57,428 nt of DNA from Gemmatimonadaceae bacterium (GCA_039928475.1 JBDSTA010000367.1:1-57428), one strand, 5' to 3'. Shown: positions 1-57,428, counted from the stretch's first letter. Notes: generated by a model from the letters alone, not told the origin. Made by a program: numbers and translations.

Positions 1-2
1 CG

Positions 3-1283
3 CTCAAGGTTGCGGCGCGCTCGGCGTCCCTGCCCTACCGGAATCGCACCGTTGCGCCGGCGGACCTGGGGCGCGAGCTCAACGTGGGCAGCGTGCTCGA
101 AGGCACGGTGCAGCGCATGGGCGACCGGCTGCGCATCTCCGCATTCCTCAGCGACACGAGCGACGGGCGCGAGCTATGGTCCGAGCGGTACGACCGTGAC
201 GCGAGCGACATCTTCGCGTTGCAGGACGACATCGCCGCGTCGGTGGTGAACTCGCTGCGCGTCACGCTGTCCGGCCTCGATCACCGCGCGATGGTGAAGC
301 GGCCCACGGCGAGCGTGGAGGCCTACCAGCTCTACCTGCGCGGGCGGCACCTGTGGAATCACCGGCAGGCCGGCAGCACGCAGAAGGCGATCCAGTGCTT
401 CCGCGAGGCGCTGGAGATCGATCCGCTGTACGCGCTGCCCTACGCCGGCCTCGCCGACGCCTTCGCGTCGCTCGGCGCGTACGAGTACATGCGGCCGATC
501 GACGCATTTCCCAAGGCGACGGCGTCCGCCGAGCGCGCGCTGAGCCTCGATGCGACGCTCGCCGAGGCGCATACGACGCTCGGCGTGGCGCAGGCGCACT
601 ATGCATGGGATTGGCGCGCGGGCGAGCAGTCGTACCTCGAGGCCATCGCGCTCAACCCGCGGTATGCCCTCGCGCACACGTACTATGCCCTTCTGCTCTC
701 GGCCACCGGCCGGCACGAGCGCGCGGCGGACGCCATCGCGCGCGCGGCGGAGATCGACCCCATCTCCGTGCCGATCATCACCATCAAGGGCTACGTCGCC
801 TACTACGCGCGCCGGTACGACGATGCGATTCACGACTACCGCATCGCGCTCGACATGGATCCCTCGTTCGGGCTGGCCATGGTGCTCCTCGGCTACGCGA
901 ACCTCAGCCGCGGGCAGTACGACGAATCCATTCGCGTGTTCCGCGCCATTCCCTCACCGAGGCTGACCTCCATTGGGGGACTCGGCATAGCGCTCAGCCT
1001 CACCGGGCGCACGGATGAGGCGCGCGCACTGCTGGCGCAGATGGAAGGCGCCCGCACTACGGAATACATCTCCGCCTTCACGCTTTCGCAGGTGCACCTG
1101 GGCCTTGGCGATCGCGAGACCGCGCTGTCGCTGCTCGAGTCGGCGGTCGCGGAGCGTTCGTACAACCTGAGCTTCGTCGCATCGGCGCAGCCCTTCGATT
1201 CGCTGCGCGGCGAGCCGCGCTTCGCCGCCGTGCTGAAGAGCATCGGCCTCGAGCACGTTCCCGGTGCCCTCGTGAGGCCCTGA
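3..1283 (+). CDS. TPR-repeat protein, 5'-truncated by the window edge (C-terminal module of a regulator/kinase-type protein)
   Basis: Frame 3 is open from the window edge (LKVAARSASLPYRNRTVAPADLGRELNVGSVLEGTVQR...), so track ORF 84..1283 begins at an internal start. The C-terminal ~300 aa are degenerate TPR-like helical repeats (AYQLYLRGRHLW, AIQCFREALEIDPLYALPY, YLEAIALNPRYALAH, DYRIALDMDPSFGLA). Third-codon-position GC is high. Confidence 0.8.
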   Translation, partial: LKVAARSASLPYRNRTVAPADLGRELNVGSVLEGTVQRMGDRLRISAFLSDTSDGRELWSERYDRDASDIFALQDDIAASVVNSLRVTLSGLDHRAMVKRPTASVEAYQLYLRGRHLWNHRQAGSTQKAIQCFREALEIDPLYALPYAGLADAFASLGAYEYMRPIDAFPKATASAERALSLDATLAEAHTTLGVAQAHYAWDWRAGEQSYLEAIALNPRYALAHTYYALLLSATGRHERAADAIARAAEIDPISVPIITIKGYVAYYARRYDDAIHDYRIALDMDPSFGLAMVLLGYANLSRGQYDESIRVFRAIPSPRLTSIGGLGIALSLTGRTDEARALLAQMEGARTTEYISAFTLSQVHLGLGDRETALSLLESAVAERSYNLSFVASAQPFDSLRGEPRFAAVLKSIGLEHVPGALVRP

Positions 1284-2120
1284 GTGGAGATCATCCCCAT
1301 CCAGACCGGAACGGTGCGCATCCATCCGAACCAGGTGCGCGGGAAGGGGCATGGCAGCAAGCGGCGCCTGAACGTGTTCCGCGACAAGGAGTGGACGCGG
1401 CCGCTGCCGATCCTCGCGTGGCTCATCCGTCACCCGGAAGGTGACATCCTCGTCGACACGGGGGAGACGCCGCAGGCGATGATGCGTGGCTACTACCCGA
1501 ACCTCAATCCGTACTACCGGTCGCACATTCGCGTCGAGATCGGACCGGAAGAGGAGCTGGGCGCGCAGTTGCGGCGGCTTGGCGTGGATCCGGCCGCGCT
1601 GCGTACGGTGCTCACCACGCACCTGCACACGGATCACGCGGGCGGTCTCTCCGCGCTGGCGAACGCGGAGGTCTGGACGCACGAGCGCGAGCTCGCGCTG
1701 TCGCGCGGCCTGGGCGGCTGGATTCGCGGGTACGTGGCGAAGTCCTTCCCGCGCGGCTTCGCACCGCGCACCTACACGTTCACCGGCGGGCCGGTCGGTC
1801 CGTTCGCGCGGTCGCACGTGGTCACGCGAGCGGGCGACGTCCACGTCGTGGAGACGGCGGGCCACACCGACGGGCATTGCTCGGTGATCGTCACCGCGAA
1901 CGACACGACGTACTTCATCGCCGGCGACGCAACCTACGACGAGGCCAGCCTGCTCGACCTCGCCGTGGACGGACTCTCACCGCACGAGGATCGCGCGCTC
2001 GCGACGCTGAAGCGTATCGCCGACCTCGCCGGCTCCACGCGCGTGGTCTACCTCCCCACGCACGACGAGCATGCGATCCGCCGCCTGCGCGACGGCGTGC
2101 CCACGCGCGTCAGGGCGTGA
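1284..2120 (+). CDS. MBL-fold metallo-hydrolase (N-acyl-homoserine-lactonase-like)
   Basis: HLHTDHAGG matches the HxHxDH zinc motif of the metallo-beta-lactamase fold, with a downstream TAGHTDGH. The GTG start at 1284 abuts the upstream TGA (1281-1283). Confidence 0.85.
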   Translation: MEIIPIQTGTVRIHPNQVRGKGHGSKRRLNVFRDKEWTRPLPILAWLIRHPEGDILVDTGETPQAMMRGYYPNLNPYYRSHIRVEIGPEEELGAQLRRLGVDPAALRTVLTTHLHTDHAGGLSALANAEVWTHERELALSRGLGGWIRGYVAKSFPRGFAPRTYTFTGGPVGPFARSHVVTRAGDVHVVETAGHTDGHCSVIVTANDTTYFIAGDATYDEASLLDLAVDGLSPHEDRALATLKRIADLAGSTRVVYLPTHDEHAIRRLRDGVPTRVRA

Positions 2121-3684
2121 AGGTGAGGAATCCCGTGACGGGCTCCGACACACGCCGGGCGCTCGACCGCGCGACCTTCGTCCCGTCGCCGAGATTGCCG
2201 TAGAGGTTCGCGCCCCAACAGTACATCGCGCCGGTGCGTGAGGTGATGCCGCACACGTGCGTGTCGCCCGAGGCGATCTTCACGAAGGTGCGATTGCTGT
2301 CGAGCGGTACCACGGCGGGCGTGACGTTGCTCGAGTCGGCGATGCCGCGCCCGAGCTGCCCGTAGGAATTGCTGCCCCAGCAGTACGCCGCACCGGCCGC
2401 CGTGAGCCCGCAGGTGTGTGCGTAGCCCGCGACGATCGACGCAAAGTCCCTCGACAGCCGGCGCGGCAGCGGCGCATCGCACCCGAGATCGGTCACCACC
2501 GGGCAGCCCGCAACGCCCGTTTCGCCGTCGGCGTTTCGTCCCCAGCACCACGTCGCCTTGTCGGCGCGGCGCGGTCCCACCGCCGCGCAGCTGTGTGAGC
2601 CACCGACGGCGACGGACGCAGTGTCACCGGCCACCGGAACGAGGCCCGGCACCTGCGCCACCGGCGACGAGCCGCCAATGAGGCCGTTGCCGATCTGTCC
2701 CTCGAGGTTCGAGCCCCAGCAGAACACGCCGGTCGACCCCGCAGCGCACGCATGAAAGCTCGCGACGGACACGGCGAACACCTGCCGCGCCGCCGCCTCG
2801 AGCCCCGCCGAGTACACGCACTGCTCTGTGGGCGAATCGCGGCAGCTCTCCGAGCTCTCGACGGGCTGGTGTCCCATGGAGAACCCGCCATTCAAGCCCC
2901 AGCACGACGCACTTCCCCCGCCGGTGATGCCGCACGAGAAGAAGTAGCCCGGCGCCACGCTGGTGAAGGAATTGTTGAGTGGAAGCGTGGGCACCGGGGC
3001 GAATGCCACCGATCGTCCGAGTCCGGCAATGCCGTAGTCGTTGAGGCCCCAGCAATACGACACGGAGCTGTCCTGCACGTTGGCGCACGCGGTGGTGCCG
3101 CCCGCGAACACACGGTCGAAGGGAAGTCCGATGGTGTTGAGCAGTGGCCGCGGCACGAGCGCGTCGATGGGCTTTCCGGTACCGGTCAACTCCCACGCGC
3201 CCCAGCAGAACACGCGGTACTTCACGTTCACGGCGCAGGTCGATGCGGTGGACGCCGCGACGTCGAGCCAGCGCTGGTTCACGCGCACGGTGAAGGTCGT
3301 TTCCGCCGCGCTCAGGCCCGGCTGCTCCAGCCGCACCTTGATGTTGGCGATGCCCGGCGCGCGCGCGTACAGGCACGCGTGCACCTCGGGAATCGGCGTC
3401 GTCTCGCGCGCGAGCCCGCAGTTCGCGCCGTCATCGATGCGGATCACCGAATCGGGCGTGGAGGTCCAGACGACGCGCGTGGTGTAGAGCGCCTGCGCAT
3501 CGGAGGTGGCCTGCACCTTCATGACGACGTGCTTCAACTCGCCGTCGTACAGCTCCTTCGGCATCGCGCTCACGCCCGTATCCGGATGGAAGGAGACGTC
3601 GAGCGCCTTCGTCGCCGTGAGCTCCTGGCAGCCTGCCAGCGCAACGACGCACGCCGCCCACCCGGCGCGGCGCAGAGCGCGCAT
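2110..3684 (-). CDS. RCC1-repeat lipoprotein with N-terminal Ig-like region
   Basis: Track ORF 2110..4131 was trimmed to the ATG at 3684. This gives a lipoprotein signal peptide MRALRRAGWAACVVALAGC. It carries repeated RCC1-type CWGxNxxGxxG units (CWGSNSYGQLGRG, CWGANLYGNLGDG, CWGSNLEGQIGNG, CWGRNADGETG, CWGLNDYGIAGLG). The start shares one nt with the upstream stop (TGATG junction). Confidence 0.8.
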   Translation of the reverse strand: MRALRRAGWAACVVALAGCQELTATKALDVSFHPDTGVSAMPKELYDGELKHVVMKVQATSDAQALYTTRVVWTSTPDSVIRIDDGANCGLARETTPIPEVHACLYARAPGIANIKVRLEQPGLSAAETTFTVRVNQRWLDVAASTASTCAVNVKYRVFCWGAWELTGTGKPIDALVPRPLLNTIGLPFDRVFAGGTTACANVQDSSVSYCWGLNDYGIAGLGRSVAFAPVPTLPLNNSFTSVAPGYFFSCGITGGGSASCWGLNGGFSMGHQPVESSESCRDSPTEQCVYSAGLEAAARQVFAVSVASFHACAAGSTGVFCWGSNLEGQIGNGLIGGSSPVAQVPGLVPVAGDTASVAVGGSHSCAAVGPRRADKATWCWGRNADGETGVAGCPVVTDLGCDAPLPRRLSRDFASIVAGYAHTCGLTAAGAAYCWGSNSYGQLGRGIADSSNVTPAVVPLDSNRTFVKIASGDTHVCGITSRTGAMYCWGANLYGNLGDGTKVARSSARRVSEPVTGFLTFTP

Positions 3685-5102
3685 CACGGTGACGACGGGC
3701 CCTCGCCCCACATCGCCGCATGCGCGTGCTGCCGCGCGAACATCTCGGCGGGCACCGTGCGCTCGTAGTACTCGAGCTCCGGATGCGACACCTGCAGCCA
3801 CGTGCCCGGCACGTAGAACGCATCCACGTGCGCCGGAAAACGGCCGTACGTGTCGTAGATGTAGTTGCAGACGTCCTTCACGTACGCGACGGCGCGGTCG
3901 TCGTAGCGCTGGCCCTCGCGCACGAACTGCGAGGCCATGCTGGGAGACGCATATCCCTTCTGCAACAGCGACGGATCGTACGCACCGCCCGGGCCGAACT
4001 TCGCCTCGAGCACGGCGTCCACGGCGGCGTCCATCGACGACACGAACGGCGGTGTGTTCCCTTCGAGGATGCCGGGGATGCCGATGGGATTCGGCATCCA
4101 CGACGGCGGTGGCGGCGGGCTCATGCCCCACGTCTTCCCCGGCGCCTGCATCGTGAACCCCAGCCCCGGATGCTCCTTCGTGCCGTCACCCTCGAAGATG
4201 AATGGCGACGCGGGGCAGAAGTGCACCCACGCGCCAAGCCCCATGGCCTGCGTGAGCAGCATGAGGTTCTGGAGGTGGAAGTGCGACTCGTGATCGGCGA
4301 TGAACGTGCGAAAGAGGCCGAGCGGCGCCGCGACCTTCGGGTTCACGTACCCCGAGTGGATGTACTTCGTACCGCCGATCGGCTGGTAGGGGATCTGCAC
4401 CTTGCCGATGTGCTGGAGGAAGCTCGCCGCGAGGTCCGTAGCCGACTCCGGCTTGAAGTGCTGGAAGTCGTCGATGAACAGGGGCCGCTCGCCATCCGGC
4501 TCCATCGCGAGGTTCAGCAGCGCGTTGATGTACCCGCGCGTGCAGTCCACGATGGGCAGGAACATCGTGGTGCCCGGCATGTTCGACAGCTGCTTGTTCC
4601 AGCCGAGATAGAAGGGGAAGCGTCGCGGAAACGTGAGCCGGTCGCCGATGCGCTTCTTCATCGCTTCGGCGGTGCTGGTCCAGTCGCTCGCGCTCCAGTC
4701 CTCCCATTTCGGTGGCAGGTCGCGCAGCAGCTCCATCGCGCGCGCGGGGGTGAGGTTCTCGATCAACCACGTGCCCGCATCGTTGATCATGATGAAGTGC
4801 ACGGCCTGGATGTTGTCCGGGCTGCTCGCCGAGCGCGCCATCACGTGCAGGAACGGCGTGCCGAGCTCGCGGCCGCCGCCGGGAATGTCGAGCGGCCCAT
4901 CATGCGTGACCACGCCCGTGAGTCCCGTGGCGACGATCAGCATCGCCTCCTCGACCGGCTCGAGCGGCGCGGGTGCATTCGTGCTCGTGTGCGACAGCGT
5001 GCCCGCCGCCACGGACACGCCGCGCGCGACGCGGCGCGTGCGGCGTCCCGCGATCGCCGAGAGCAGCGGATAGCGAAGGACCTCGAGTGGAACGCCCCTC
5101 AT
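3684..5102 (-). CDS. Nitroreductase-superfamily protein (large, SagB/ThcOx-like size), function unknown
   Basis: Track ORF 3684..5213 was trimmed to the ATG at 5102, because the Ser/Pro-rich N-terminal extension overlaps the upstream gene. It has an N-terminal AIAGRRTRRVARG followed by PLEPVEEAMLIV, and a C-terminal HLQNLMLLTQAMGLGAWVH. These resemble the two conserved nitroreductase-fold segments. Family assignment is by eye only. Confidence 0.6.
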   Translation of the reverse strand: MRGVPLEVLRYPLLSAIAGRRTRRVARGVSVAAGTLSHTSTNAPAPLEPVEEAMLIVATGLTGVVTHDGPLDIPGGGRELGTPFLHVMARSASSPDNIQAVHFIMINDAGTWLIENLTPARAMELLRDLPPKWEDWSASDWTSTAEAMKKRIGDRLTFPRRFPFYLGWNKQLSNMPGTTMFLPIVDCTRGYINALLNLAMEPDGERPLFIDDFQHFKPESATDLAASFLQHIGKVQIPYQPIGGTKYIHSGYVNPKVAAPLGLFRTFIADHESHFHLQNLMLLTQAMGLGAWVHFCPASPFIFEGDGTKEHPGLGFTMQAPGKTWGMSPPPPPSWMPNPIGIPGILEGNTPPFVSSMDAAVDAVLEAKFGPGGAYDPSLLQKGYASPSMASQFVREGQRYDDRAVAYVKDVCNYIYDTYGRFPAHVDAFYVPGTWLQVSHPELEYYERTVPAEMFARQHAHAAMWGEGPSSP

Positions 5103-5127
5103 GTCACCCGCCACGCCGCGCGCGACG

Positions 5128-8100
5128 TCAGGCGTGCGCGCCGGCGAGTCCGGCGTCGTGGGGCTCGGGCTGCTGGTGCTGCTCGAGCTCGGAGAGGATG
5201 AGGGGGAAGACATCGGTTGACGCGTCCTTGCCGAAGAAGCAATCGAGGTGGCCGTAGTTCGGCACGACGATGCGCTTGTAGTGCGCGTCGCCGTTGTGCT
5301 CGCGAACCCAGTCGTACGTCATGCGGCTGCCCTCGGGAAGGAACATGTTGTTCAGCTCCCCGTGGATGAACGTGATGGGCATCGCCAGGCGCGCGACATT
5401 CGGCAGGTACGTGTCGTCACCCTCGGCGTCCACCACGCTCGCACCCGCTGCCGACGCGGCCAGTTGCGCGAACGGCTTCATGTGCGCGACGCCGAACCAC
5501 TCGTGCATCGCCACATGCGTCGCCTCGTTCAACTGACTGTGCTTGTACACCTCGCCATACATGAACAGGATCTTGCGGCAGACGTCGAGGTGGCAGCGCT
5601 CGTGCGTGGGATAGAGCCGCATCACCTCGTTCAGCGCCTTGTCGAACCACCTCGGCTCCGGACGCTCCGTGGTGAGCGTGTGCAGGCCGATGGCGTTGAG
5701 CACGGACGGCAGGTGCAGCTTCGCCTTGATCTCGCTGAGCGTCGGCGCCTTGGGGTGCACGGTGAGCGCCGAGCACACTGCCGAGCGGACGCCGGTGAGC
5801 CCCGCGAGTTGCGCCATCAGGAACGACATGGAGCCCACGCAGTGCCCCACCACCTGCACGTCGGGCTTCCCGGTGGACGCCCGCACGGCCGCCACCGCGG
5901 CGGGCCAGTCGCGCTTCGCCACGTCGTCGATGGTGTACGGCTGCGACGACGACGGCAAGGCCGTGCTCGAGCGATAGTCGAAGAGCCAGATGTCGTAGCC
6001 CTCCGCATACAGGAACTCGACGAAGTTCTTGTCCACGGTGTCGATCAGCCACGATGACGCCGGCATGCCGAAGCCCGGCGCCAGGATCACGGGCCCCTTC
6101 GTGCCGCCCTGGTAGCGCGTGAGCACGAGCGGCGTGCCGTCGTCGGCCGCGATCGCATGCACCTCCGGCGCGCCGATGGCGAGTGGCCGACGCTTGCGTG
6201 GCGTGGGGTCGGGATGGAAGGTGGTCGTCTGCCCGAAAACGGTGCCGTACGTGTCGTACAGCACCCCGGCGAAAAGCTTGCCGAAGTCGTAGGTGATGGC
6301 GAGCCGCTCCGCGCTACTCGCGGCACCCACCACCTTCATGGTGCCCATCTGCTTCTGGAAGTCCAGCGCCCCGATGTGCAGCACGCCACGGCCGACGATC
6401 GCACCGCTCGCATCGGTGCCTTCGTGGATGGTGATGTAGAGCGTCGACGTGTCCGGCCATATGTGCAGCAGGCTGCCCTGCCGCACGCGCTTGTAGCCGT
6501 CCATGTACCAGCTCATGCCCGCTGGCGAGCGCATGACCATGCCGTAGCGCATGCGCTTCTCTTCCGCCGCGCCCGTGAAGTCACTGAAGAGGCTGAACTG
6601 TCCCTGCGTGACGCTGAGCGGATCGGGCGAGAGGTCCGGCGCGGTGACGGTGCCGAACATCGACGCGTTGTGCGGCGGGGTGGCGATCATCGCGCGCGCG
6701 TCGCGCGCATCCACGGTGAGCGTGAACTCGAACTTCGAGCCCGTGGACTTCCCCGCCACAGCCGCCGCGTCGAAATCGGCATCGCTGCCCGGCGACCAGA
6801 AGCCGCGCATCGTCTCCGTGAACTGGAGCGAGGGAACGACTTGCACGTCGTCGGCCAGCGAGCCGTTCGGCGAATAGTCGATGGTCCAGCCCCGGTCCTT
6901 CGCCAGCAGAGCGGAGTTCCGCTCCGCCACCGACGAGATGGTGATGAGGGGATTCACGCCGAGCGAGCGCGGCATCACCGAGCCGTCCATCACGTAGAGA
7001 TCGTCGTACACGTCGGTACCCGTATCGCCGCGGAACACCTGCCCCTTGTGATTCACCGCGCCCGATTCGCCGCTCTCACCCATTGGCACGCCGCCGAGCG
7101 GATGCACGGTGATGAGGCGTTCGCCAAGGAGCGACGTCCAGAGCGGATTGCGGAAGTACTCCGCGTTCATGGCCGCCGACGCCTCCTCGAGCTTGCGATC
7201 CATGCGCGCGAAGTGCGGCTGCTCGCCGACGCCGCCCCAGTGCACGCGCAGCCGTCCGTCCTCGAGCCTGATGTGCCCGCCCGAGTCGTCGTGGGACATC
7301 ACGAGGAAGGTCTGCGCCGAGTCGGTCGCGCCGGTGTACGGGCCGCGCGTGAGGCTCGACAGGGTCTTCAGCGCCTGCCGTGCCTTGTGCTCGTGATCCG
7401 TCTTCTCACCGATGAACGGGCCGGCCGTTACGTACATCAATGGGTTGAGCGTCCCGACCGGGCCGGGCACGTCGCCCTCCTCGATGATGAAGCCCTCGTT
7501 CACGTCGGTCGTCGCGCGCCCGTCGATCACGCCCGTGATGCACGGACCTACTTCGCGCCCCTGCACCGGCGCACGAGAGCCGAGCCCGATGCCGTGGATG
7601 GGCTGGTCGGCATTGTAGGCGAAGCCGATGACGTCGCCGTTGCCGGAGAAGCGCGTGCCCACCTTCGACGACATCGGCACGCCCGCGGCGTGCGAGCGCA
7701 GGAGGATCCCGGTGCTGCCGAGCGCGCCCGCGCTCACCACGACGACATCAGCGGCCACGAACATCGGCGCTGCGTTGAACGTCTCGCGCCCGACCGCGAG
7801 CGGCTCGAAGTGCACGAGCCAGCCGCCGGACGGCGCGCGCTCGAGGCGCTGTACCGCGGTGCACGTGAAGATTTCCGCGCCGTGATGATCGGCGTCCGGG
7901 AGGTAGTTCATCAGCGTGGTGTTCTTCGCGCCGTGGTTGCAGCCCGTGACGCAGTCACCGCAGAGCGTGCACGCCTGCTGCTCCACGCCCGCGTGATTCC
8001 GGCCATCCTCGAACGTGACGTTGATGGCGGTCTTGTAGACCGGCAGGCCGAGTCGCGCTGCAGACCGCTCGAGCCCCTGATACTTGGCAAGGGGCGGCAG

Positions 8101-8553
8101 CGCGTCAGGGTACGGATTCGCACCGAGCATCTGCTCGGCGCGCGCATACCCTTCGTCGAGCACGGCGCGGTCGGCCCGTAGCGCGGCCGGCCACGCAGGA
8201 TCGTCGAACACGCGTGGATCCGCGCGGAGCGACACGTTGGCATTGATCAGTGACGTTCCGCCGAGGCCGCAACCAGAGAGGACGACGATGCCGTCCTCGA
8301 CGTGAAAGTCGAACAGCCCTGTGCGCGGTCCCGTATCCGCCAGCGGCGAGTGCGTCTGCATCTCTTCCGCCGCCTCGAGGGGCGTGTCGGGAAATTCCCC
8401 CGCATGCCGCTCGGGACCGCGCTCCAGCAGGCAGACGGACCTTCCCGCCCTCGCGAGCCGAGAGGCGGCAACGGCGCCCCCGTAACCCGAGCCGACCACG
8501 ACCACGTCATAGTGTGGACGCATGTCTTCCAAACGGCGAGTCAGTCTGCGCAT
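5128..8553 (-). CDS. GMC/cholesterol-oxidase-like FAD oxidoreductase fused to a C-terminal alpha/beta-hydrolase domain (1141 aa)
   Basis: YDVVVVGSGYGGAVAASRLA is a GxGxxG FAD fold. HPLGGVPMG and LYVMDGSVMPRSLGVNPLITISSVAER are GMC C-terminal motifs. The C-terminal third has VILAPGFGM, a nucleophile elbow VVGHCVGS and NYGHLDCFFG. GGAGGA lies 5 nt upstream of the ATG. Confidence 0.85.
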   Translation of the reverse strand: MRRLTRRLEDMRPHYDVVVVGSGYGGAVAASRLARAGRSVCLLERGPERHAGEFPDTPLEAAEEMQTHSPLADTGPRTGLFDFHVEDGIVVLSGCGLGGTSLINANVSLRADPRVFDDPAWPAALRADRAVLDEGYARAEQMLGANPYPDALPPLAKYQGLERSAARLGLPVYKTAINVTFEDGRNHAGVEQQACTLCGDCVTGCNHGAKNTTLMNYLPDADHHGAEIFTCTAVQRLERAPSGGWLVHFEPLAVGRETFNAAPMFVAADVVVVSAGALGSTGILLRSHAAGVPMSSKVGTRFSGNGDVIGFAYNADQPIHGIGLGSRAPVQGREVGPCITGVIDGRATTDVNEGFIIEEGDVPGPVGTLNPLMYVTAGPFIGEKTDHEHKARQALKTLSSLTRGPYTGATDSAQTFLVMSHDDSGGHIRLEDGRLRVHWGGVGEQPHFARMDRKLEEASAAMNAEYFRNPLWTSLLGERLITVHPLGGVPMGESGESGAVNHKGQVFRGDTGTDVYDDLYVMDGSVMPRSLGVNPLITISSVAERNSALLAKDRGWTIDYSPNGSLADDVQVVPSLQFTETMRGFWSPGSDADFDAAAVAGKSTGSKFEFTLTVDARDARAMIATPPHNASMFGTVTAPDLSPDPLSVTQGQFSLFSDFTGAAEEKRMRYGMVMRSPAGMSWYMDGYKRVRQGSLLHIWPDTSTLYITIHEGTDASGAIVGRGVLHIGALDFQKQMGTMKVVGAASSAERLAITYDFGKLFAGVLYDTYGTVFGQTTTFHPDPTPRKRRPLAIGAPEVHAIAADDGTPLVLTRYQGGTKGPVILAPGFGMPASSWLIDTVDKNFVEFLYAEGYDIWLFDYRSSTALPSSSQPYTIDDVAKRDWPAAVAAVRASTGKPDVQVVGHCVGSMSFLMAQLAGLTGVRSAVCSALTVHPKAPTLSEIKAKLHLPSVLNAIGLHTLTTERPEPRWFDKALNEVMRLYPTHERCHLDVCRKILFMYGEVYKHSQLNEATHVAMHEWFGVAHMKPFAQLAASAAGASVVDAEGDDTYLPNVARLAMPITFIHGELNNMFLPEGSRMTYDWVREHNGDAHYKRIVVPNYGHLDCFFGKDASTDVFPLILSELEQHQQPEPHDAGLAGAHA

Positions 8554-8577
8554 CGATTTCCTCCGGGGGGAGGTGCG

Positions 8578-8605
8578 AATGTAGTCGATCTGGACAACAC
8601 GTCAA
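8578..8605 (-). promoter_or_regulatory. Candidate sigma70-like promoter for the GMC-oxidoreductase operon
   Basis: On the minus strand: TTGACG-N16-TACATT, about 25 nt upstream of the ATG at 8553. It lies in the least GC-rich part of the 145-bp divergent intergenic region. This is a motif match only. Confidence 0.3.
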
Positions 8606-8698
8606 CAAACGTCATCTTGAACTTCTCCTTCTGGAGCATCACGAGTGTCCTGCCCGGGAGCGCGCGCGAAGTCGCGCTCGCCCCACCATCCGCCCAAC

Positions 8699-10309: not shown

Positions 10310-10322
10310 CGAGGACGTCCAC

Positions 10323-11840: not shown

Positions 11841-11843
11841 GAG

Positions 11844-15834: not shown

Positions 15835-15865
15835 CACGGCCCGGCGCGGCCTGTAAGCTTCGCGC

Positions 15866-17737: not shown

Positions 17738-17743
17738 CGCGCC

Positions 17744-18811: not shown

Positions 18812-18813
18812 AG

Positions 18814-18899
18814 GGCAGTCTGGCAGTCGGGACAGTCTGACAGTCTGACAGTCGCTTGGCCTTGACTGTCCTGACTGTCGGACTGTCGGACTGTCAGAC
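18814..18899. repeat. 8-nt-phased array of GACWGTC heptamers forming a long imperfect hairpin
   Basis: Five GRCAGTC units (ggcagtc t ggcagtc gg gacagtc t gacagtc t gacagtc) are followed by the spacer gcttggcctt. Then come four GACTGTC units (gactgtc c t gactgtc g gactgtc g gactgtc). It lies directly after the stop at 18811. Confidence 0.9.
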
Positions 18900-18917
18900 C
18901 CTGTTTCCGGAGCTGAA

Positions 18918-20892: not shown

Positions 20893-20914
20893 CCGACCCG
20901 GAGACGCAGACATA

Positions 20915-38511: not shown

Positions 38512-38529
38512 TTCAGCTCCGGAAACAGG

Positions 38530-38615: not shown

Positions 38616-38617
38616 CT

Positions 38618-39685: not shown

Positions 39686-39691
39686 GGCGCG

Positions 39692-41563: not shown

Positions 41564-41594
41564 GCGCGAAGCTTACAGGCCGCGCCGGGCCGTG

Positions 41595-45585: not shown

Positions 45586-45588
45586 CTC

Positions 45589-47106: not shown

Positions 47107-47119
47107 GTGGACGTCCTCG

Positions 47120-48730: not shown

Positions 48731-48823
48731 GTTGGGCGGATGGTGGGGCGAGCGCGACTTCGCGCGCGCTCCCGGGCAGGACACTCGTGATGCTCCAGAA
48801 GGAGAAGTTCAAGATGACGTTTG

Positions 48824-48851
48824 TTGACGTGTTGTCCAGATCGACTACATT
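48824..48851 (+). promoter_or_regulatory. Candidate sigma70-like promoter, mirror copy
   Basis: TTGACG (48824..48829)-N16-TACATT (48846..48851). Exact mirror of 8578..8605. Confidence 0.3.
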
Positions 48852-48875
48852 CGCACCTCCCCCCGGAGGAAATCG

Positions 48876-51800
48876 ATGCGCAGACTGACTCGCCGTTTGG
48901 AAGACATGCGTCCACACTATGACGTGGTCGTGGTCGGCTCGGGTTACGGGGGCGCCGTTGCCGCCTCTCGGCTCGCGAGGGCGGGAAGGTCCGTCTGCCT
49001 GCTGGAGCGCGGTCCCGAGCGGCATGCGGGGGAATTTCCCGACACGCCCCTCGAGGCGGCGGAAGAGATGCAGACGCACTCGCCGCTGGCGGATACGGGA
49101 CCGCGCACAGGGCTGTTCGACTTTCACGTCGAGGACGGCATCGTCGTCCTCTCTGGTTGCGGCCTCGGCGGAACGTCACTGATCAATGCCAACGTGTCGC
49201 TCCGCGCGGATCCACGCGTGTTCGACGATCCTGCGTGGCCGGCCGCGCTACGGGCCGACCGCGCCGTGCTCGACGAAGGGTATGCGCGCGCCGAGCAGAT
49301 GCTCGGTGCGAATCCGTACCCTGACGCGCTGCCGCCCCTTGCCAAGTATCAGGGGCTCGAGCGGTCTGCAGCGCGACTCGGCCTGCCGGTCTACAAGACC
49401 GCCATCAACGTCACGTTCGAGGATGGCCGGAATCACGCGGGCGTGGAGCAGCAGGCGTGCACGCTCTGCGGTGACTGCGTCACGGGCTGCAACCACGGCG
49501 CGAAGAACACCACGCTGATGAACTACCTCCCGGACGCCGATCATCACGGCGCGGAAATCTTCACGTGCACCGCGGTACAGCGCCTCGAGCGCGCGCCGTC
49601 CGGCGGCTGGCTCGTGCACTTCGAGCCGCTCGCGGTCGGGCGCGAGACGTTCAACGCAGCGCCGATGTTCGTGGCCGCTGATGTCGTCGTGGTGAGCGCG
49701 GGCGCGCTCGGCAGCACCGGGATCCTCCTGCGCTCGCACGCCGCGGGCGTGCCGATGTCGTCGAAGGTGGGCACGCGCTTCTCCGGCAACGGCGACGTCA
49801 TCGGCTTCGCCTACAATGCCGACCAGCCCATCCACGGCATCGGGCTCGGCTCTCGTGCGCCGGTGCAGGGGCGCGAAGTAGGTCCGTGCATCACGGGCGT
49901 GATCGACGGGCGCGCGACGACCGACGTGAACGAGGGCTTCATCATCGAGGAGGGCGACGTGCCCGGCCCGGTCGGGACGCTCAACCCATTGATGTACGTA
50001 ACGGCCGGCCCGTTCATCGGTGAGAAGACGGATCACGAGCACAAGGCACGGCAGGCGCTGAAGACCCTGTCGAGCCTCACGCGCGGCCCGTACACCGGCG
50101 CGACCGACTCGGCGCAGACCTTCCTCGTGATGTCCCACGACGACTCGGGCGGGCACATCAGGCTCGAGGACGGACGGCTGCGCGTGCACTGGGGCGGCGT
50201 CGGCGAGCAGCCGCACTTCGCGCGCATGGATCGCAAGCTCGAGGAGGCGTCGGCGGCCATGAACGCGGAGTACTTCCGCAATCCGCTCTGGACGTCGCTC
50301 CTTGGCGAACGCCTCATCACCGTGCATCCGCTCGGCGGCGTGCCAATGGGTGAGAGCGGCGAATCGGGCGCGGTGAATCACAAGGGGCAGGTGTTCCGCG
50401 GCGATACGGGTACCGACGTGTACGACGATCTCTACGTGATGGACGGCTCGGTGATGCCGCGCTCGCTCGGCGTGAATCCCCTCATCACCATCTCGTCGGT
50501 GGCGGAGCGGAACTCCGCTCTGCTGGCGAAGGACCGGGGCTGGACCATCGACTATTCGCCGAACGGCTCGCTGGCCGACGACGTGCAAGTCGTTCCCTCG
50601 CTCCAGTTCACGGAGACGATGCGCGGCTTCTGGTCGCCGGGCAGCGATGCCGATTTCGACGCGGCGGCTGTGGCGGGGAAGTCCACGGGCTCGAAGTTCG
50701 AGTTCACGCTCACCGTGGATGCGCGCGACGCGCGCGCGATGATCGCCACCCCGCCGCACAACGCGTCGATGTTCGGCACCGTCACCGCGCCGGACCTCTC
50801 GCCCGATCCGCTCAGCGTCACGCAGGGACAGTTCAGCCTCTTCAGTGACTTCACGGGCGCGGCGGAAGAGAAGCGCATGCGCTACGGCATGGTCATGCGC
50901 TCGCCAGCGGGCATGAGCTGGTACATGGACGGCTACAAGCGCGTGCGGCAGGGCAGCCTGCTGCACATATGGCCGGACACGTCGACGCTCTACATCACCA
51001 TCCACGAAGGCACCGATGCGAGCGGTGCGATCGTCGGCCGTGGCGTGCTGCACATCGGGGCGCTGGACTTCCAGAAGCAGATGGGCACCATGAAGGTGGT
51101 GGGTGCCGCGAGTAGCGCGGAGCGGCTCGCCATCACCTACGACTTCGGCAAGCTTTTCGCCGGGGTGCTGTACGACACGTACGGCACCGTTTTCGGGCAG
51201 ACGACCACCTTCCATCCCGACCCCACGCCACGCAAGCGTCGGCCACTCGCCATCGGCGCGCCGGAGGTGCATGCGATCGCGGCCGACGACGGCACGCCGC
51301 TCGTGCTCACGCGCTACCAGGGCGGCACGAAGGGGCCCGTGATCCTGGCGCCGGGCTTCGGCATGCCGGCGTCATCGTGGCTGATCGACACCGTGGACAA
51401 GAACTTCGTCGAGTTCCTGTATGCGGAGGGCTACGACATCTGGCTCTTCGACTATCGCTCGAGCACGGCCTTGCCGTCGTCGTCGCAGCCGTACACCATC
51501 GACGACGTGGCGAAGCGCGACTGGCCCGCCGCGGTGGCGGCCGTGCGGGCGTCCACCGGGAAGCCCGACGTGCAGGTGGTGGGGCACTGCGTGGGCTCCA
51601 TGTCGTTCCTGATGGCGCAACTCGCGGGGCTCACCGGCGTCCGCTCGGCAGTGTGCTCGGCGCTCACCGTGCACCCCAAGGCGCCGACGCTCAGCGAGAT
51701 CAAGGCGAAGCTGCACCTGCCGTCCGTGCTCAACGCCATCGGCCTGCACACGCTCACCACGGAGCGTCCGGAGCCGAGGTGGTTCGACAAGGCGCTGAAC

Positions 51801-52301
51801 GAGGTGATGCGGCTCTATCCCACGCACGAGCGCTGCCACCTCGACGTCTGCCGCAAGATCCTGTTCATGTATGGCGAGGTGTACAAGCACAGTCAGTTGA
51901 ACGAGGCGACGCATGTGGCGATGCACGAGTGGTTCGGCGTCGCGCACATGAAGCCGTTCGCGCAACTGGCCGCGTCGGCAGCGGGTGCGAGCGTGGTGGA
52001 CGCCGAGGGTGACGACACGTACCTGCCGAATGTCGCGCGCCTGGCGATGCCCATCACGTTCATCCACGGGGAGCTGAACAACATGTTCCTTCCCGAGGGC
52101 AGCCGCATGACGTACGACTGGGTTCGCGAGCACAACGGCGACGCGCACTACAAGCGCATCGTCGTGCCGAACTACGGCCACCTCGATTGCTTCTTCGGCA
52201 AGGACGCGTCAACCGATGTCTTCCCCCTCATCCTCTCCGAGCTCGAGCAGCACCAGCAGCCCGAGCCCCACGACGCCGGACTCGCCGGCGCGCACGCCTG
52301 A
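48876..52301 (+). CDS. GMC oxidoreductase::alpha/beta-hydrolase fusion, mirror copy
   Basis: Exact mirror of 5128..8553. GGAGGA at 48865..48870 precedes the ATG at 48876. Confidence 0.83.
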   Translation: MRRLTRRLEDMRPHYDVVVVGSGYGGAVAASRLARAGRSVCLLERGPERHAGEFPDTPLEAAEEMQTHSPLADTGPRTGLFDFHVEDGIVVLSGCGLGGTSLINANVSLRADPRVFDDPAWPAALRADRAVLDEGYARAEQMLGANPYPDALPPLAKYQGLERSAARLGLPVYKTAINVTFEDGRNHAGVEQQACTLCGDCVTGCNHGAKNTTLMNYLPDADHHGAEIFTCTAVQRLERAPSGGWLVHFEPLAVGRETFNAAPMFVAADVVVVSAGALGSTGILLRSHAAGVPMSSKVGTRFSGNGDVIGFAYNADQPIHGIGLGSRAPVQGREVGPCITGVIDGRATTDVNEGFIIEEGDVPGPVGTLNPLMYVTAGPFIGEKTDHEHKARQALKTLSSLTRGPYTGATDSAQTFLVMSHDDSGGHIRLEDGRLRVHWGGVGEQPHFARMDRKLEEASAAMNAEYFRNPLWTSLLGERLITVHPLGGVPMGESGESGAVNHKGQVFRGDTGTDVYDDLYVMDGSVMPRSLGVNPLITISSVAERNSALLAKDRGWTIDYSPNGSLADDVQVVPSLQFTETMRGFWSPGSDADFDAAAVAGKSTGSKFEFTLTVDARDARAMIATPPHNASMFGTVTAPDLSPDPLSVTQGQFSLFSDFTGAAEEKRMRYGMVMRSPAGMSWYMDGYKRVRQGSLLHIWPDTSTLYITIHEGTDASGAIVGRGVLHIGALDFQKQMGTMKVVGAASSAERLAITYDFGKLFAGVLYDTYGTVFGQTTTFHPDPTPRKRRPLAIGAPEVHAIAADDGTPLVLTRYQGGTKGPVILAPGFGMPASSWLIDTVDKNFVEFLYAEGYDIWLFDYRSSTALPSSSQPYTIDDVAKRDWPAAVAAVRASTGKPDVQVVGHCVGSMSFLMAQLAGLTGVRSAVCSALTVHPKAPTLSEIKAKLHLPSVLNAIGLHTLTTERPEPRWFDKALNEVMRLYPTHERCHLDVCRKILFMYGEVYKHSQLNEATHVAMHEWFGVAHMKPFAQLAASAAGASVVDAEGDDTYLPNVARLAMPITFIHGELNNMFLPEGSRMTYDWVREHNGDAHYKRIVVPNYGHLDCFFGKDASTDVFPLILSELEQHQQPEPHDAGLAGAHA

Positions 52302-52326
52302 CGTCGCGCGCGGCGTGGCGGGTGAC

Positions 52327-53745
52327 ATGAGGGGCGTTCCACTCGAGGTCCTTCGCTATCCGCTGCTCTCGGCGATCGCGGGACGCCGCACGCGCCGCGT
52401 CGCGCGCGGCGTGTCCGTGGCGGCGGGCACGCTGTCGCACACGAGCACGAATGCACCCGCGCCGCTCGAGCCGGTCGAGGAGGCGATGCTGATCGTCGCC
52501 ACGGGACTCACGGGCGTGGTCACGCATGATGGGCCGCTCGACATTCCCGGCGGCGGCCGCGAGCTCGGCACGCCGTTCCTGCACGTGATGGCGCGCTCGG
52601 CGAGCAGCCCGGACAACATCCAGGCCGTGCACTTCATCATGATCAACGATGCGGGCACGTGGTTGATCGAGAACCTCACCCCCGCGCGCGCGATGGAGCT
52701 GCTGCGCGACCTGCCACCGAAATGGGAGGACTGGAGCGCGAGCGACTGGACCAGCACCGCCGAAGCGATGAAGAAGCGCATCGGCGACCGGCTCACGTTT
52801 CCGCGACGCTTCCCCTTCTATCTCGGCTGGAACAAGCAGCTGTCGAACATGCCGGGCACCACGATGTTCCTGCCCATCGTGGACTGCACGCGCGGGTACA
52901 TCAACGCGCTGCTGAACCTCGCGATGGAGCCGGATGGCGAGCGGCCCCTGTTCATCGACGACTTCCAGCACTTCAAGCCGGAGTCGGCTACGGACCTCGC
53001 GGCGAGCTTCCTCCAGCACATCGGCAAGGTGCAGATCCCCTACCAGCCGATCGGCGGTACGAAGTACATCCACTCGGGGTACGTGAACCCGAAGGTCGCG
53101 GCGCCGCTCGGCCTCTTTCGCACGTTCATCGCCGATCACGAGTCGCACTTCCACCTCCAGAACCTCATGCTGCTCACGCAGGCCATGGGGCTTGGCGCGT
53201 GGGTGCACTTCTGCCCCGCGTCGCCATTCATCTTCGAGGGTGACGGCACGAAGGAGCATCCGGGGCTGGGGTTCACGATGCAGGCGCCGGGGAAGACGTG
53301 GGGCATGAGCCCGCCGCCACCGCCGTCGTGGATGCCGAATCCCATCGGCATCCCCGGCATCCTCGAAGGGAACACACCGCCGTTCGTGTCGTCGATGGAC
53401 GCCGCCGTGGACGCCGTGCTCGAGGCGAAGTTCGGCCCGGGCGGTGCGTACGATCCGTCGCTGTTGCAGAAGGGATATGCGTCTCCCAGCATGGCCTCGC
53501 AGTTCGTGCGCGAGGGCCAGCGCTACGACGACCGCGCCGTCGCGTACGTGAAGGACGTCTGCAACTACATCTACGACACGTACGGCCGTTTTCCGGCGCA
53601 CGTGGATGCGTTCTACGTGCCGGGCACGTGGCTGCAGGTGTCGCATCCGGAGCTCGAGTACTACGAGCGCACGGTGCCCGCCGAGATGTTCGCGCGGCAG
53701 CACGCGCATGCGGCGATGTGGGGCGAGGGCCCGTCGTCACCGTGA
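52327..53745 (+). CDS. Nitroreductase-superfamily protein, mirror copy
   Basis: Exact mirror of 3684..5102. Confidence 0.58.
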   Translation: MRGVPLEVLRYPLLSAIAGRRTRRVARGVSVAAGTLSHTSTNAPAPLEPVEEAMLIVATGLTGVVTHDGPLDIPGGGRELGTPFLHVMARSASSPDNIQAVHFIMINDAGTWLIENLTPARAMELLRDLPPKWEDWSASDWTSTAEAMKKRIGDRLTFPRRFPFYLGWNKQLSNMPGTTMFLPIVDCTRGYINALLNLAMEPDGERPLFIDDFQHFKPESATDLAASFLQHIGKVQIPYQPIGGTKYIHSGYVNPKVAAPLGLFRTFIADHESHFHLQNLMLLTQAMGLGAWVHFCPASPFIFEGDGTKEHPGLGFTMQAPGKTWGMSPPPPPSWMPNPIGIPGILEGNTPPFVSSMDAAVDAVLEAKFGPGGAYDPSLLQKGYASPSMASQFVREGQRYDDRAVAYVKDVCNYIYDTYGRFPAHVDAFYVPGTWLQVSHPELEYYERTVPAEMFARQHAHAAMWGEGPSSP

Positions 53746-55319
53746 TGCGCGCTCTGCGCCGCGCCGGGTGGGCGGCGTGCGTCGTTGCGCTGGCAGGCTG
53801 CCAGGAGCTCACGGCGACGAAGGCGCTCGACGTCTCCTTCCATCCGGATACGGGCGTGAGCGCGATGCCGAAGGAGCTGTACGACGGCGAGTTGAAGCAC
53901 GTCGTCATGAAGGTGCAGGCCACCTCCGATGCGCAGGCGCTCTACACCACGCGCGTCGTCTGGACCTCCACGCCCGATTCGGTGATCCGCATCGATGACG
54001 GCGCGAACTGCGGGCTCGCGCGCGAGACGACGCCGATTCCCGAGGTGCACGCGTGCCTGTACGCGCGCGCGCCGGGCATCGCCAACATCAAGGTGCGGCT
54101 GGAGCAGCCGGGCCTGAGCGCGGCGGAAACGACCTTCACCGTGCGCGTGAACCAGCGCTGGCTCGACGTCGCGGCGTCCACCGCATCGACCTGCGCCGTG
54201 AACGTGAAGTACCGCGTGTTCTGCTGGGGCGCGTGGGAGTTGACCGGTACCGGAAAGCCCATCGACGCGCTCGTGCCGCGGCCACTGCTCAACACCATCG
54301 GACTTCCCTTCGACCGTGTGTTCGCGGGCGGCACCACCGCGTGCGCCAACGTGCAGGACAGCTCCGTGTCGTATTGCTGGGGCCTCAACGACTACGGCAT
54401 TGCCGGACTCGGACGATCGGTGGCATTCGCCCCGGTGCCCACGCTTCCACTCAACAATTCCTTCACCAGCGTGGCGCCGGGCTACTTCTTCTCGTGCGGC
54501 ATCACCGGCGGGGGAAGTGCGTCGTGCTGGGGCTTGAATGGCGGGTTCTCCATGGGACACCAGCCCGTCGAGAGCTCGGAGAGCTGCCGCGATTCGCCCA
54601 CAGAGCAGTGCGTGTACTCGGCGGGGCTCGAGGCGGCGGCGCGGCAGGTGTTCGCCGTGTCCGTCGCGAGCTTTCATGCGTGCGCTGCGGGGTCGACCGG
54701 CGTGTTCTGCTGGGGCTCGAACCTCGAGGGACAGATCGGCAACGGCCTCATTGGCGGCTCGTCGCCGGTGGCGCAGGTGCCGGGCCTCGTTCCGGTGGCC
54801 GGTGACACTGCGTCCGTCGCCGTCGGTGGCTCACACAGCTGCGCGGCGGTGGGACCGCGCCGCGCCGACAAGGCGACGTGGTGCTGGGGACGAAACGCCG
54901 ACGGCGAAACGGGCGTTGCGGGCTGCCCGGTGGTGACCGATCTCGGGTGCGATGCGCCGCTGCCGCGCCGGCTGTCGAGGGACTTTGCGTCGATCGTCGC
55001 GGGCTACGCACACACCTGCGGGCTCACGGCGGCCGGTGCGGCGTACTGCTGGGGCAGCAATTCCTACGGGCAGCTCGGGCGCGGCATCGCCGACTCGAGC
55101 AACGTCACGCCCGCCGTGGTACCGCTCGACAGCAATCGCACCTTCGTGAAGATCGCCTCGGGCGACACGCACGTGTGCGGCATCACCTCACGCACCGGCG
55201 CGATGTACTGTTGGGGCGCGAACCTCTACGGCAATCTCGGCGACGGGACGAAGGTCGCGCGGTCGAGCGCCCGGCGTGTGTCGGAGCCCGTCACGGGATT
55301 CCTCACCTTCACGCCCTGA
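53745..55319 (+). CDS. RCC1-repeat lipoprotein, mirror copy
   Basis: Exact mirror of 2110..3684. The TGATG junction lies at 53743..53747. Confidence 0.78.
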   Translation: MRALRRAGWAACVVALAGCQELTATKALDVSFHPDTGVSAMPKELYDGELKHVVMKVQATSDAQALYTTRVVWTSTPDSVIRIDDGANCGLARETTPIPEVHACLYARAPGIANIKVRLEQPGLSAAETTFTVRVNQRWLDVAASTASTCAVNVKYRVFCWGAWELTGTGKPIDALVPRPLLNTIGLPFDRVFAGGTTACANVQDSSVSYCWGLNDYGIAGLGRSVAFAPVPTLPLNNSFTSVAPGYFFSCGITGGGSASCWGLNGGFSMGHQPVESSESCRDSPTEQCVYSAGLEAAARQVFAVSVASFHACAAGSTGVFCWGSNLEGQIGNGLIGGSSPVAQVPGLVPVAGDTASVAVGGSHSCAAVGPRRADKATWCWGRNADGETGVAGCPVVTDLGCDAPLPRRLSRDFASIVAGYAHTCGLTAAGAAYCWGSNSYGQLGRGIADSSNVTPAVVPLDSNRTFVKIASGDTHVCGITSRTGAMYCWGANLYGNLGDGTKVARSSARRVSEPVTGFLTFTP

Positions 55320-56145
55320 CGCGCGTGGGCACGCCGTCGCGCAGGCGGCGGATCGCATGCTCGTCGTGCGTGGGGAGGTAGACCACGCGCGTGGAGCCGG
55401 CGAGGTCGGCGATACGCTTCAGCGTCGCGAGCGCGCGATCCTCGTGCGGTGAGAGTCCGTCCACGGCGAGGTCGAGCAGGCTGGCCTCGTCGTAGGTTGC
55501 GTCGCCGGCGATGAAGTACGTCGTGTCGTTCGCGGTGACGATCACCGAGCAATGCCCGTCGGTGTGGCCCGCCGTCTCCACGACGTGGACGTCGCCCGCT
55601 CGCGTGACCACGTGCGACCGCGCGAACGGACCGACCGGCCCGCCGGTGAACGTGTAGGTGCGCGGTGCGAAGCCGCGCGGGAAGGACTTCGCCACGTACC
55701 CGCGAATCCAGCCGCCCAGGCCGCGCGACAGCGCGAGCTCGCGCTCGTGCGTCCAGACCTCCGCGTTCGCCAGCGCGGAGAGACCGCCCGCGTGATCCGT
55801 GTGCAGGTGCGTGGTGAGCACCGTACGCAGCGCGGCCGGATCCACGCCAAGCCGCCGCAACTGCGCGCCCAGCTCCTCTTCCGGTCCGATCTCGACGCGA
55901 ATGTGCGACCGGTAGTACGGATTGAGGTTCGGGTAGTAGCCACGCATCATCGCCTGCGGCGTCTCCCCCGTGTCGACGAGGATGTCACCTTCCGGGTGAC
56001 GGATGAGCCACGCGAGGATCGGCAGCGGCCGCGTCCACTCCTTGTCGCGGAACACGTTCAGGCGCCGCTTGCTGCCATGCCCCTTCCCGCGCACCTGGTT
56101 CGGATGGATGCGCACCGTTCCGGTCTGGATGGGGATGATCTCCAC
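55309..56145 (-). CDS. MBL-fold metallo-hydrolase, mirror copy
   Basis: Exact mirror of 1284..2120. Confidence 0.83.
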   Translation of the reverse strand: MEIIPIQTGTVRIHPNQVRGKGHGSKRRLNVFRDKEWTRPLPILAWLIRHPEGDILVDTGETPQAMMRGYYPNLNPYYRSHIRVEIGPEEELGAQLRRLGVDPAALRTVLTTHLHTDHAGGLSALANAEVWTHERELALSRGLGGWIRGYVAKSFPRGFAPRTYTFTGGPVGPFARSHVVTRAGDVHVVETAGHTDGHCSVIVTANDTTYFIAGDATYDEASLLDLAVDGLSPHEDRALATLKRIADLAGSTRVVYLPTHDEHAIRRLRDGVPTRVRA

Positions 56146-57426
56146 TCAGGGCCTCACGAGGGCACCGGGAACGTGCTCGAGGCCGATGCTCTTCAGCACG
56201 GCGGCGAAGCGCGGCTCGCCGCGCAGCGAATCGAAGGGCTGCGCCGATGCGACGAAGCTCAGGTTGTACGAACGCTCCGCGACCGCCGACTCGAGCAGCG
56301 ACAGCGCGGTCTCGCGATCGCCAAGGCCCAGGTGCACCTGCGAAAGCGTGAAGGCGGAGATGTATTCCGTAGTGCGGGCGCCTTCCATCTGCGCCAGCAG
56401 TGCGCGCGCCTCATCCGTGCGCCCGGTGAGGCTGAGCGCTATGCCGAGTCCCCCAATGGAGGTCAGCCTCGGTGAGGGAATGGCGCGGAACACGCGAATG
56501 GATTCGTCGTACTGCCCGCGGCTGAGGTTCGCGTAGCCGAGGAGCACCATGGCCAGCCCGAACGAGGGATCCATGTCGAGCGCGATGCGGTAGTCGTGAA
56601 TCGCATCGTCGTACCGGCGCGCGTAGTAGGCGACGTAGCCCTTGATGGTGATGATCGGCACGGAGATGGGGTCGATCTCCGCCGCGCGCGCGATGGCGTC
56701 CGCCGCGCGCTCGTGCCGGCCGGTGGCCGAGAGCAGAAGGGCATAGTACGTGTGCGCGAGGGCATACCGCGGGTTGAGCGCGATGGCCTCGAGGTACGAC
56801 TGCTCGCCCGCGCGCCAATCCCATGCATAGTGCGCCTGCGCCACGCCGAGCGTCGTATGCGCCTCGGCGAGCGTCGCATCGAGGCTCAGCGCGCGCTCGG
56901 CGGACGCCGTCGCCTTGGGAAATGCGTCGATCGGCCGCATGTACTCGTACGCGCCGAGCGACGCGAAGGCGTCGGCGAGGCCGGCGTAGGGCAGCGCGTA
57001 CAGCGGATCGATCTCCAGCGCCTCGCGGAAGCACTGGATCGCCTTCTGCGTGCTGCCGGCCTGCCGGTGATTCCACAGGTGCCGCCCGCGCAGGTAGAGC
57101 TGGTAGGCCTCCACGCTCGCCGTGGGCCGCTTCACCATCGCGCGGTGATCGAGGCCGGACAGCGTGACGCGCAGCGAGTTCACCACCGACGCGGCGATGT
57201 CGTCCTGCAACGCGAAGATGTCGCTCGCGTCACGGTCGTACCGCTCGGACCATAGCTCGCGCCCGTCGCTCGTGTCGCTGAGGAATGCGGAGATGCGCAG
57301 CCGGTCGCCCATGCGCTGCACCGTGCCTTCGAGCACGCTGCCCACGTTGAGCTCGCGCCCCAGGTCCGCCGGCGCAACGGTGCGATTCCGGTAGGGCAGG
57401 GACGCCGAGCGCGCCGCAACCTTGAG
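56146..57426 (-). CDS. TPR-repeat protein, 5'-truncated by the window edge, mirror copy
   Basis: Exact mirror of 3..1283. It runs off the right edge of the window. Confidence 0.78.
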   Translation of the reverse strand, partial: LKVAARSASLPYRNRTVAPADLGRELNVGSVLEGTVQRMGDRLRISAFLSDTSDGRELWSERYDRDASDIFALQDDIAASVVNSLRVTLSGLDHRAMVKRPTASVEAYQLYLRGRHLWNHRQAGSTQKAIQCFREALEIDPLYALPYAGLADAFASLGAYEYMRPIDAFPKATASAERALSLDATLAEAHTTLGVAQAHYAWDWRAGEQSYLEAIALNPRYALAHTYYALLLSATGRHERAADAIARAAEIDPISVPIITIKGYVAYYARRYDDAIHDYRIALDMDPSFGLAMVLLGYANLSRGQYDESIRVFRAIPSPRLTSIGGLGIALSLTGRTDEARALLAQMEGARTTEYISAFTLSQVHLGLGDRETALSLLESAVAERSYNLSFVASAQPFDSLRGEPRFAAVLKSIGLEHVPGALVRP

Positions 57427-57428
57427 CG

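Follow-up and report, generated by a model that had tools for sequence, protein, structure and literature searches.

Introduction

Contigs that read as one long palindrome are a documented product of de Bruijn graph assembly. A hairpin edge, which joins an edge of the graph to its reverse-complement copy, gives rise to a chimeric palindromic sequence (PMC6736328). Palindromic maximal unitigs and self-mirror edges were formalised for doubled de Bruijn graphs by Rahman and Medvedev; such palindromes are emitted whole by SPAdes and MEGAHIT and broken by ABySS, and unitigs were proved to be unsafe where coverage is incomplete (PMC9528984). In a pangenome study of Mycobacterium bovis, 81 SPAdes contigs each consisted of a single palindrome, and these were judged to be an assembly error that inflated the counts of accessory genes (PMC9455707). 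In this study we analyzed a contig of a Gemmatimonadaceae bacterium (GCA_039928475.1, JBDSTA010000367.1:1-57428), referred to below in its full length of 57,428 nt as the window. The window is a perfect palindrome that folds back just behind a dacB-like gene, at the apex of a putative transcription terminator, and it is almost certainly a member of this documented class of artefacts rather than a product of biology.

The likeness to the described de Bruijn hairpin misassemblies is close. The whole contig is one palindrome, its genes occur as pairs in reverse complement, the sequence corresponds to an edge followed by its own reverse complement with a turn-round at the self-mirror point of the graph, and the counts of genes and paralogues are inflated. 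The window differs from them in being unusually long (57 kb) and in having a pivot that can be traced to a specific native feature, namely the apex of what appears to be a bidirectional terminator.

Fold-back topology is also known from other sources. Inverted chimeras generated by phi29 multiple displacement amplification (MDA) and palindromic long reads share it with the window, and their junctions are favoured at short inverted repeats; however, unlike the window, such chimeras usually have unequal arms that carry independent errors. Telomere resolvases (ResT of Borrelia, TelN of phage N15 and TelA of Agrobacterium) create hairpin telomeres, and reading round such a closed end yields a perfect spacerless palindrome. 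The window differs from these systems in that it contains neither a resolvase gene nor a mobile or linear-replicon context, its pivot corresponds to a chromosome-internal site in related bacteria, and its tip is terminator-like.

The contig is an exact palindrome

Comparison of the window with its own reverse complement revealed 0 mismatches over 57,428 bases, and the base counts are accordingly balanced (A = T = 9,371; C = G = 19,343). A full-length, exact self reverse complement with arms of equal length, as is typical of palindromic-contig artefacts, cannot have arisen by chance. The coordinates of the pivot, the arms and the features that bear on the origin of the contig are listed in Table 1. 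In the protein collection, the dacB product (P0001) is assigned to one contig only, with a length of 57,428 bases. Since this contig and the window have the same extent, the palindrome represents the whole contig and is not a fragment cut out of a longer sequence.

Genes were called after shadow open reading frames (ORFs) had been discarded on the basis of third-position GC content (GC3), and all 20 genes of the arm were scanned with Pfam. The TPR-repeat gene at the contig end is open in frame 3 from base 3 to its stop codon at 1281-1283, so that both ends of the contig break off inside one and the same gene. An earlier note, made from the sequence alone, had described the perfect palindrome and its centre, the broken TPR gene at both ends, mirrored intergenic repeat arrays and a gene content that included a caa3 oxidase, PBP4 and an aspartase. 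This description held in each point tested: the arrays are present, with their mirroring following by construction, and the named genes were recovered by Pfam.

Table 1. Position and basis of the features relevant to the origin of the palindromic contig.
Feature	Position (nt)	Strand	Basis or remark
Unique arm, sole real sequence content	1..28714	+	GC3 gene calls, Pfam, colinearity with ~50 related loci
Exact reverse-complement copy of 1-28714	28715..57428	-	0 mismatches; no relative with such a copy
TPR-repeat gene, open at contig end	1..1283	+	Mirror 56146-57428; TPR families
dacB-like D-Ala-D-Ala carboxypeptidase/endopeptidase (PBP4, Peptidase_S13)	27106..28671	+	PF02113, E = 2.7e-96; homologues of P0001
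Putative native 42-nt perfect palindrome	28694..28735		AAAAA-GTGCCGGACGACAG-CATG-CTGTCGTCCGGCAC-TTTTT
Pivot (symmetry centre)	28714..28715		Inside CATG loop of hairpin, zero-length spacer

Related loci continue past the pivot

Protein-guided searches yielded 60 related loci, nearly all of them from Gemmatimonadaceae metagenome-assembled genomes and soil metagenomes, with amino-acid identities of ~70-83%. Two further loci were obtained by exact look-ups of the close dacB homologues P0002 and P0058, giving 62 in total. These two proteins are among the nearest homologues, which are 86% identical to the dacB product of the window. Neither the window's own dacB product, queried with either of two start codons, nor the adjacent 425-aa protein had an exact match on another contig, and no second assembly of the strain was found.

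Upstream of dacB, the genes follow the same order as in ~50 related loci. Downstream of dacB, the two closest relatives carry a convergent saccharopine-dehydrogenase gene (sdh), followed by genes for a CoA-binding protein, a hypothetical protein, a peptidase M1, a GSDH-like protein, a protein kinase, a PALP protein, a GGDEF protein and gyrA, the last of which is reached in both L061 and L062. The sdh gene stands next to dacB in 40 of the 43 related loci with more than 1.5 kb of downstream sequence, and the rest of the block is present in most. In two relatives (L029; P0110) the dacB-sdh site lies inside contigs of 1.16-1.2 Mb. None of the block proteins, from sdh through GGDEF, found a match anywhere in the window, and an inverted self-match of at least 300 nt was present in 0 of the 62 related loci. 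The continuation past the pivot into the sdh to GGDEF block was observed in relatives rather than in the same strain. This conserved gene order places the site in the chromosome interior for the family, and the expected continuation is missing from the window.

Two loci with downstream sequence have no conserved sdh gene after dacB, namely L026 (DASURL010000263.1; 10.0 kb downstream) and L030 (JBDUCM010000156.1; 2.6 kb). The absence of sdh in these cases could be due to local rearrangement or misassembly.

The pivot lies at the apex of a terminator-like hairpin

The last gene before the pivot is dacB (stop codon 28669-28671), and a 22-nt spacer separates its stop codon from the 42-nt hairpin. 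The hairpin is built of an A5 tract, a stem of 14-16 bp and a T5 tract, with the pivot at its apex, between the CA and TG of the loop. When folded alone, the 42-mer forms a perfect hairpin with a CAUG loop (-33.2 kcal/mol, z = -10).

The left half of the element (28694-28714) is certainly native, and we infer from the terminator architecture that the right half is native as well. The A5 tract is the only run of five or more A residues in the 28.7-kb arm and ends 16 nt before the pivot; ~3e-4 of the arm positions fall 8-25 nt after such a run. Because this unique tract is carried by the left half, the argument that links the pivot with a hairpin is not circular. Together with the lack of any other hairpin-type inverted repeat of at least 20 nt in the arm, it places the fold-back at the apex of a native terminator-type hairpin and not at a random break.

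In the related loci, a hairpin composed of an A-tract, a GC-rich stem of 12-16 bp, a loop of 4-6 nt and a T-tract is located between dacB and sdh; in several of them it has the form AAAAGGGCTGCGCTCG-loop-CGAGCGCAGCCCTTT. The 42-nt element of the window, with its A-tract, GC-rich stem, short loop and T-tract, resembles these and other bidirectional intrinsic terminators. Both the stem-loop with its flanking tracts and the position after dacB agree with the relatives, while the contig contains no convergent partner gene. The element is a putative bidirectional intrinsic terminator between convergent genes. It differs from the known examples in that only its upstream half is certainly native in the contig, and its role in termination is a predicted one. 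The 32-nt core of the hairpin had no exact match in viral contigs.

The dacB-sdh spacers of the relatives vary greatly in length (L004 11473-11830; L040 4138-4570; also L013, L022, L026 and L048, directly behind dacB). Short tandem repeats occur in them (e.g., units of GGACCGGATGACC and of GGTTGACTGGTTGACT), and the conserved terminator is enclosed by nested hairpins of great length (-198 to -211 kcal/mol). The composition of these spacers suggests that small palindromic elements have been inserted repeatedly at the dacB-sdh convergent junction.

A simulated assembly walk reproduces the contig

A non-palindromic model genome was constructed from (i) the arm, (ii) the second half of the 42-nt hairpin, and (iii) unrelated downstream sequence taken from L061. 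A plain unitig walk on the de Bruijn graph of this genome was then simulated. With full k-mer coverage, the walk stopped at the branch at 28733-28735, which is the exit of the hairpin. When the hairpin-exit k-mers were removed, the walk at k = 41 or 43 spelled the window exactly to base 57428 and ended in the TPR gene. The model gave no fold-back at k = 55, and at k ≤ 39 the walk was interrupted near 24.8 kb, where the arm holds an exact repeat of 38 nt (24819/24901). For this reason, a unitig built purely at small k (e.g., 31) was rejected as the source of the contig. The simulation nevertheless shows that the mechanism is sufficient. The pivot combines an A5-stem-T5 apex, a unique A5 tract, equivalent terminators in the relatives and a simulated turn-round, as would be expected of a fold-back on a short native palindrome.

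These results point to the following course of events. The real genome would run from the TPR gene through the caa3 oxidase genes to dacB and the bidirectional terminator hairpin, and from there into the convergent sdh gene and onward. The terminator itself would be perfectly palindromic over about 42 nt or more. In a strand-joint de Bruijn or overlap graph, a path that passes the centre of the palindrome would land on the reverse complements of nodes that have already been used. The exit of the hairpin would thereby offer two routes, one into the true downstream sequence and the other back along the reverse complement of the incoming path. It may be that the true exit was absent from the graph or was pruned from it, owing to the low coverage of a soil organism, a drop of coverage at the strong GC-rich hairpin, or the clipping of tips. 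Another possibility is that the return route was supported by a small number of chimeric snap-back reads. The sole unbranched walk would then consist of the arm, the hairpin and the reverse complement of the arm, and would be emitted as one maximal palindromic unitig. Both contig ends would stop at one graph node inside the TPR gene, presumably a dead end or a branch at which the unitig terminates.

A turn-around of the assembly graph at a native palindromic terminator is, in our estimate, the origin of the contig with a probability of roughly 80%. A double pass through the graph is favoured because the two arms, each of 28,714 nt, have exactly the same length and do not differ at a single position. 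The exact graph event, including the assembler, the value of k and the choice between a coverage gap and chimeric reads, is a matter of inference.

Several points weigh against this explanation. In simulation, the fold-back is limited to values of k that exceed the length of the native palindrome by no more than one, which for a palindrome of 42 nt means 43 at most. Given this limit and the 38-nt repeat, a narrow range of k, a longer native palindrome or read-based repeat resolution is required. The large final k that is common in metagenome assemblers would need chimeric k-mers, which might stem from snap-back molecules that arose in the library or from contigs inherited from a smaller k. The native self-complementarity of the CATG loop is assumed. 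Finally, the evidence comprises the contig string, its relatives and the simulation.

Alternative origins of the palindrome

The earlier note had favoured an artefactual fold-back over an evolved or telomeric palindrome, which is supported by the synteny of the relatives, the absent continuation and the simulated walk. The specific sources that it proposed (a phi29 MDA chimera, a missed SMRTbell adapter or a nanopore fold-back read) fit less well than the graph turn-around, in view of the lack of adapters, the equal and identical arms, the intact genes and the hairpin at the pivot. The window was searched for SMRTbell, Oxford Nanopore Technologies (ONT) ligation and rapid, TruSeq and Nextera adapters, allowing up to ~1 mismatch per 6 bases; none of these adapter sequences was found in the whole window, including the pivot.

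Among the alternatives, a snap-back at the level of the sequencing library deserves the most attention, although we consider it unlikely. In this case, a strand ending in the terminator would prime its own synthesis during end repair, polymerase chain reaction or whole-genome amplification, and the resulting molecules would be chimeric while the genome itself is non-palindromic; the assembler would have followed the reads of these molecules correctly. The pivot coincides with the apex of a highly stable hairpin, the site at which self-priming is expected, and such molecules would account for a junction that survives at k above the length of the native palindrome. Moreover, chimeric hairpin connections arising from reads have been reported for rnaSPAdes (PMC6736328). 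However, self-priming preserves the native loop, and the perfect zero-spacer form would still need a fully palindromic native hairpin. In that case the graph alone would suffice. The window also shows no sign of MDA or adapters.

It is highly improbable that the palindrome is a real structure formed in vivo, be it by replication or repair snap-back at the hairpin with palindromic amplification, as a hairpin-capped end, or, in the extreme case, as a linear replicon with a hairpin telomere. Sequencing round a covalently closed hairpin end would likewise give a perfect palindrome, and short inverted repeats can seed large palindromes and tandem inversion duplications. On the other hand, bacteria are not expected to maintain long spacerless palindromes stably, and the chromosome of the relatives runs through the site in the proportion given above, including inside megabase-scale contigs. 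This conserved synteny strengthens the rejection of a hairpin telomere for which the earlier note had argued. The note's observation that protelomerase, plasmid and phage genes are lacking was also confirmed: no telomere resolvase, plasmid, phage or mobile-element domains were detected by Pfam among the 20 arm genes, whose matches point to housekeeping functions only; a resolvase gene might still be present in another part of the genome. The tip, with its GC-rich terminator stem between A5 and T5, is not known to resemble resolvase target sites. A replicon ending in a hairpin telomere was consequently rejected as unlikely. An in vivo structure would, in addition, need to be the majority form in the soil population to be assembled. 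There is correspondingly very little chance that the DNA of the sampled cells was itself palindromic and that a hairpin-capped end, or a symmetric inverted duplication spanning 28.7 kb or more, was abundant enough in the soil Gemmatimonadaceae population to be assembled.

Least probable of all is a single long fold-back read that became a contig (nanopore template-complement read-through or an unrecognised PacBio hairpin adapter). Palindromic long reads are known to arise in this way, but several features of the window argue against it. Independent passes carry independent errors and unequal arms would be expected, whereas the arms are equal and identical over their full length; the genes are intact, unlike those of the nanopore-derived contig L062; and the pivot is at the apex of a native terminator and not at a random fragment end. 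A missed adapter was rejected, as no SMRTbell or ONT adapter is present at the pivot or elsewhere.

Gene content and repeats of the arm

The arm, with a GC content of 67% and ~20 genes, is almost certainly an ordinary 28.7-kb chromosomal segment of a soil Gemmatimonadaceae. Starting from the contig end, the truncated TPR gene is followed by genes for a metallo-beta-lactamase-fold protein, an RCC1-repeat protein, a GMC oxidoreductase/hydrolase, a RoxA-like cytochrome c, a metallophosphoesterase, two trypsin-like peptidases, a class-II lyase of the aspartase/fumarase type with a cyclic nucleotide monophosphate (cNMP)-binding domain, and QRPTase. The caa3 oxidase cluster (COX2-COX1-COX3-COX4-CtaG), two genes whose products have no Pfam matches and dacB complete the arm. 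The ORFs are intact in the window, unlike those of the related nanopore-derived contig L062, in which the genes are fragmented.

The lyase gene (15866-17737, +) encodes Lyase_1 and FumaraseC_C domains together with an N-terminal cyclic-nucleotide-binding domain, a fusion that is also found in the relative L061. Its product may be a cNMP-regulated aspartase/fumarase. The gene at 5128-8553 (-) encodes a 1141-aa protein in which the N- and C-terminal domains of GMC oxidoreductases are combined with a C-terminal alpha/beta-hydrolase domain. The longest-ORF calls for the RCC1-repeat gene (2110-4131, -) and the upstream gene encoding 509 aa (3684-5213, -) overlap by ~450 nt, and the true start of the RCC1 gene is probably further downstream than the first GTG.

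An intergenic repeat array is located at 24803-25121 (mirror 32308-32626), between ctaG and the next gene. It consists of about ten GC-rich units of 26-35 nt with the common core CGCGGGCCAAAGAGCG, and includes the 38-nt repeat at 24819/24901, which is the longest exact repeat of the arm. The left block of the array (24803-24942) is opposite in orientation to the right block (24964-25121), and the two form imperfect inverted arms that are 71-88% complementary. The array may represent a family of REP (repetitive extragenic palindromic)-like elements. A second set of repeats, at 18814-18899 (mirror 38530-38615), lies between the QRPTase gene and a 131-aa ORF and is composed of short tandem 8/16-nt units GGCAGTCT, plus GACTGTCC in the opposite sense.

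An alternative pivot hairpin within the arm was also considered. It was rejected, as no other hairpin-type inverted repeat of at least 20 nt within 60 nt was found elsewhere in the arm, and the arms of the array at 24.8-25.1 kb are imperfect.

Implications

Only positions 1-28714 (or their mirror) are worth keeping, and the contig should be cut at 28714. If it is left uncut, every gene is counted twice, which creates false paralogues and false inverted synteny and inflates both the bin size and the duplication scores of completeness checks. The two-fold inflation of gene counts foreseen in the earlier note is supported, the second arm being an exact copy of the first. A simple self reverse-complement test applied to contigs would catch all artefacts of this kind.

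The contig provides a worked example of where such an artefact would arise, namely at a bidirectional terminator that lies between convergent genes and is itself a perfect palindrome. Were the palindrome present in vivo, it would show, as few natural cases do, how a hairpin seeds a palindrome in an uncultured bacterium; however, the evidence speaks against this, and the value of the finding is practical, not biological.

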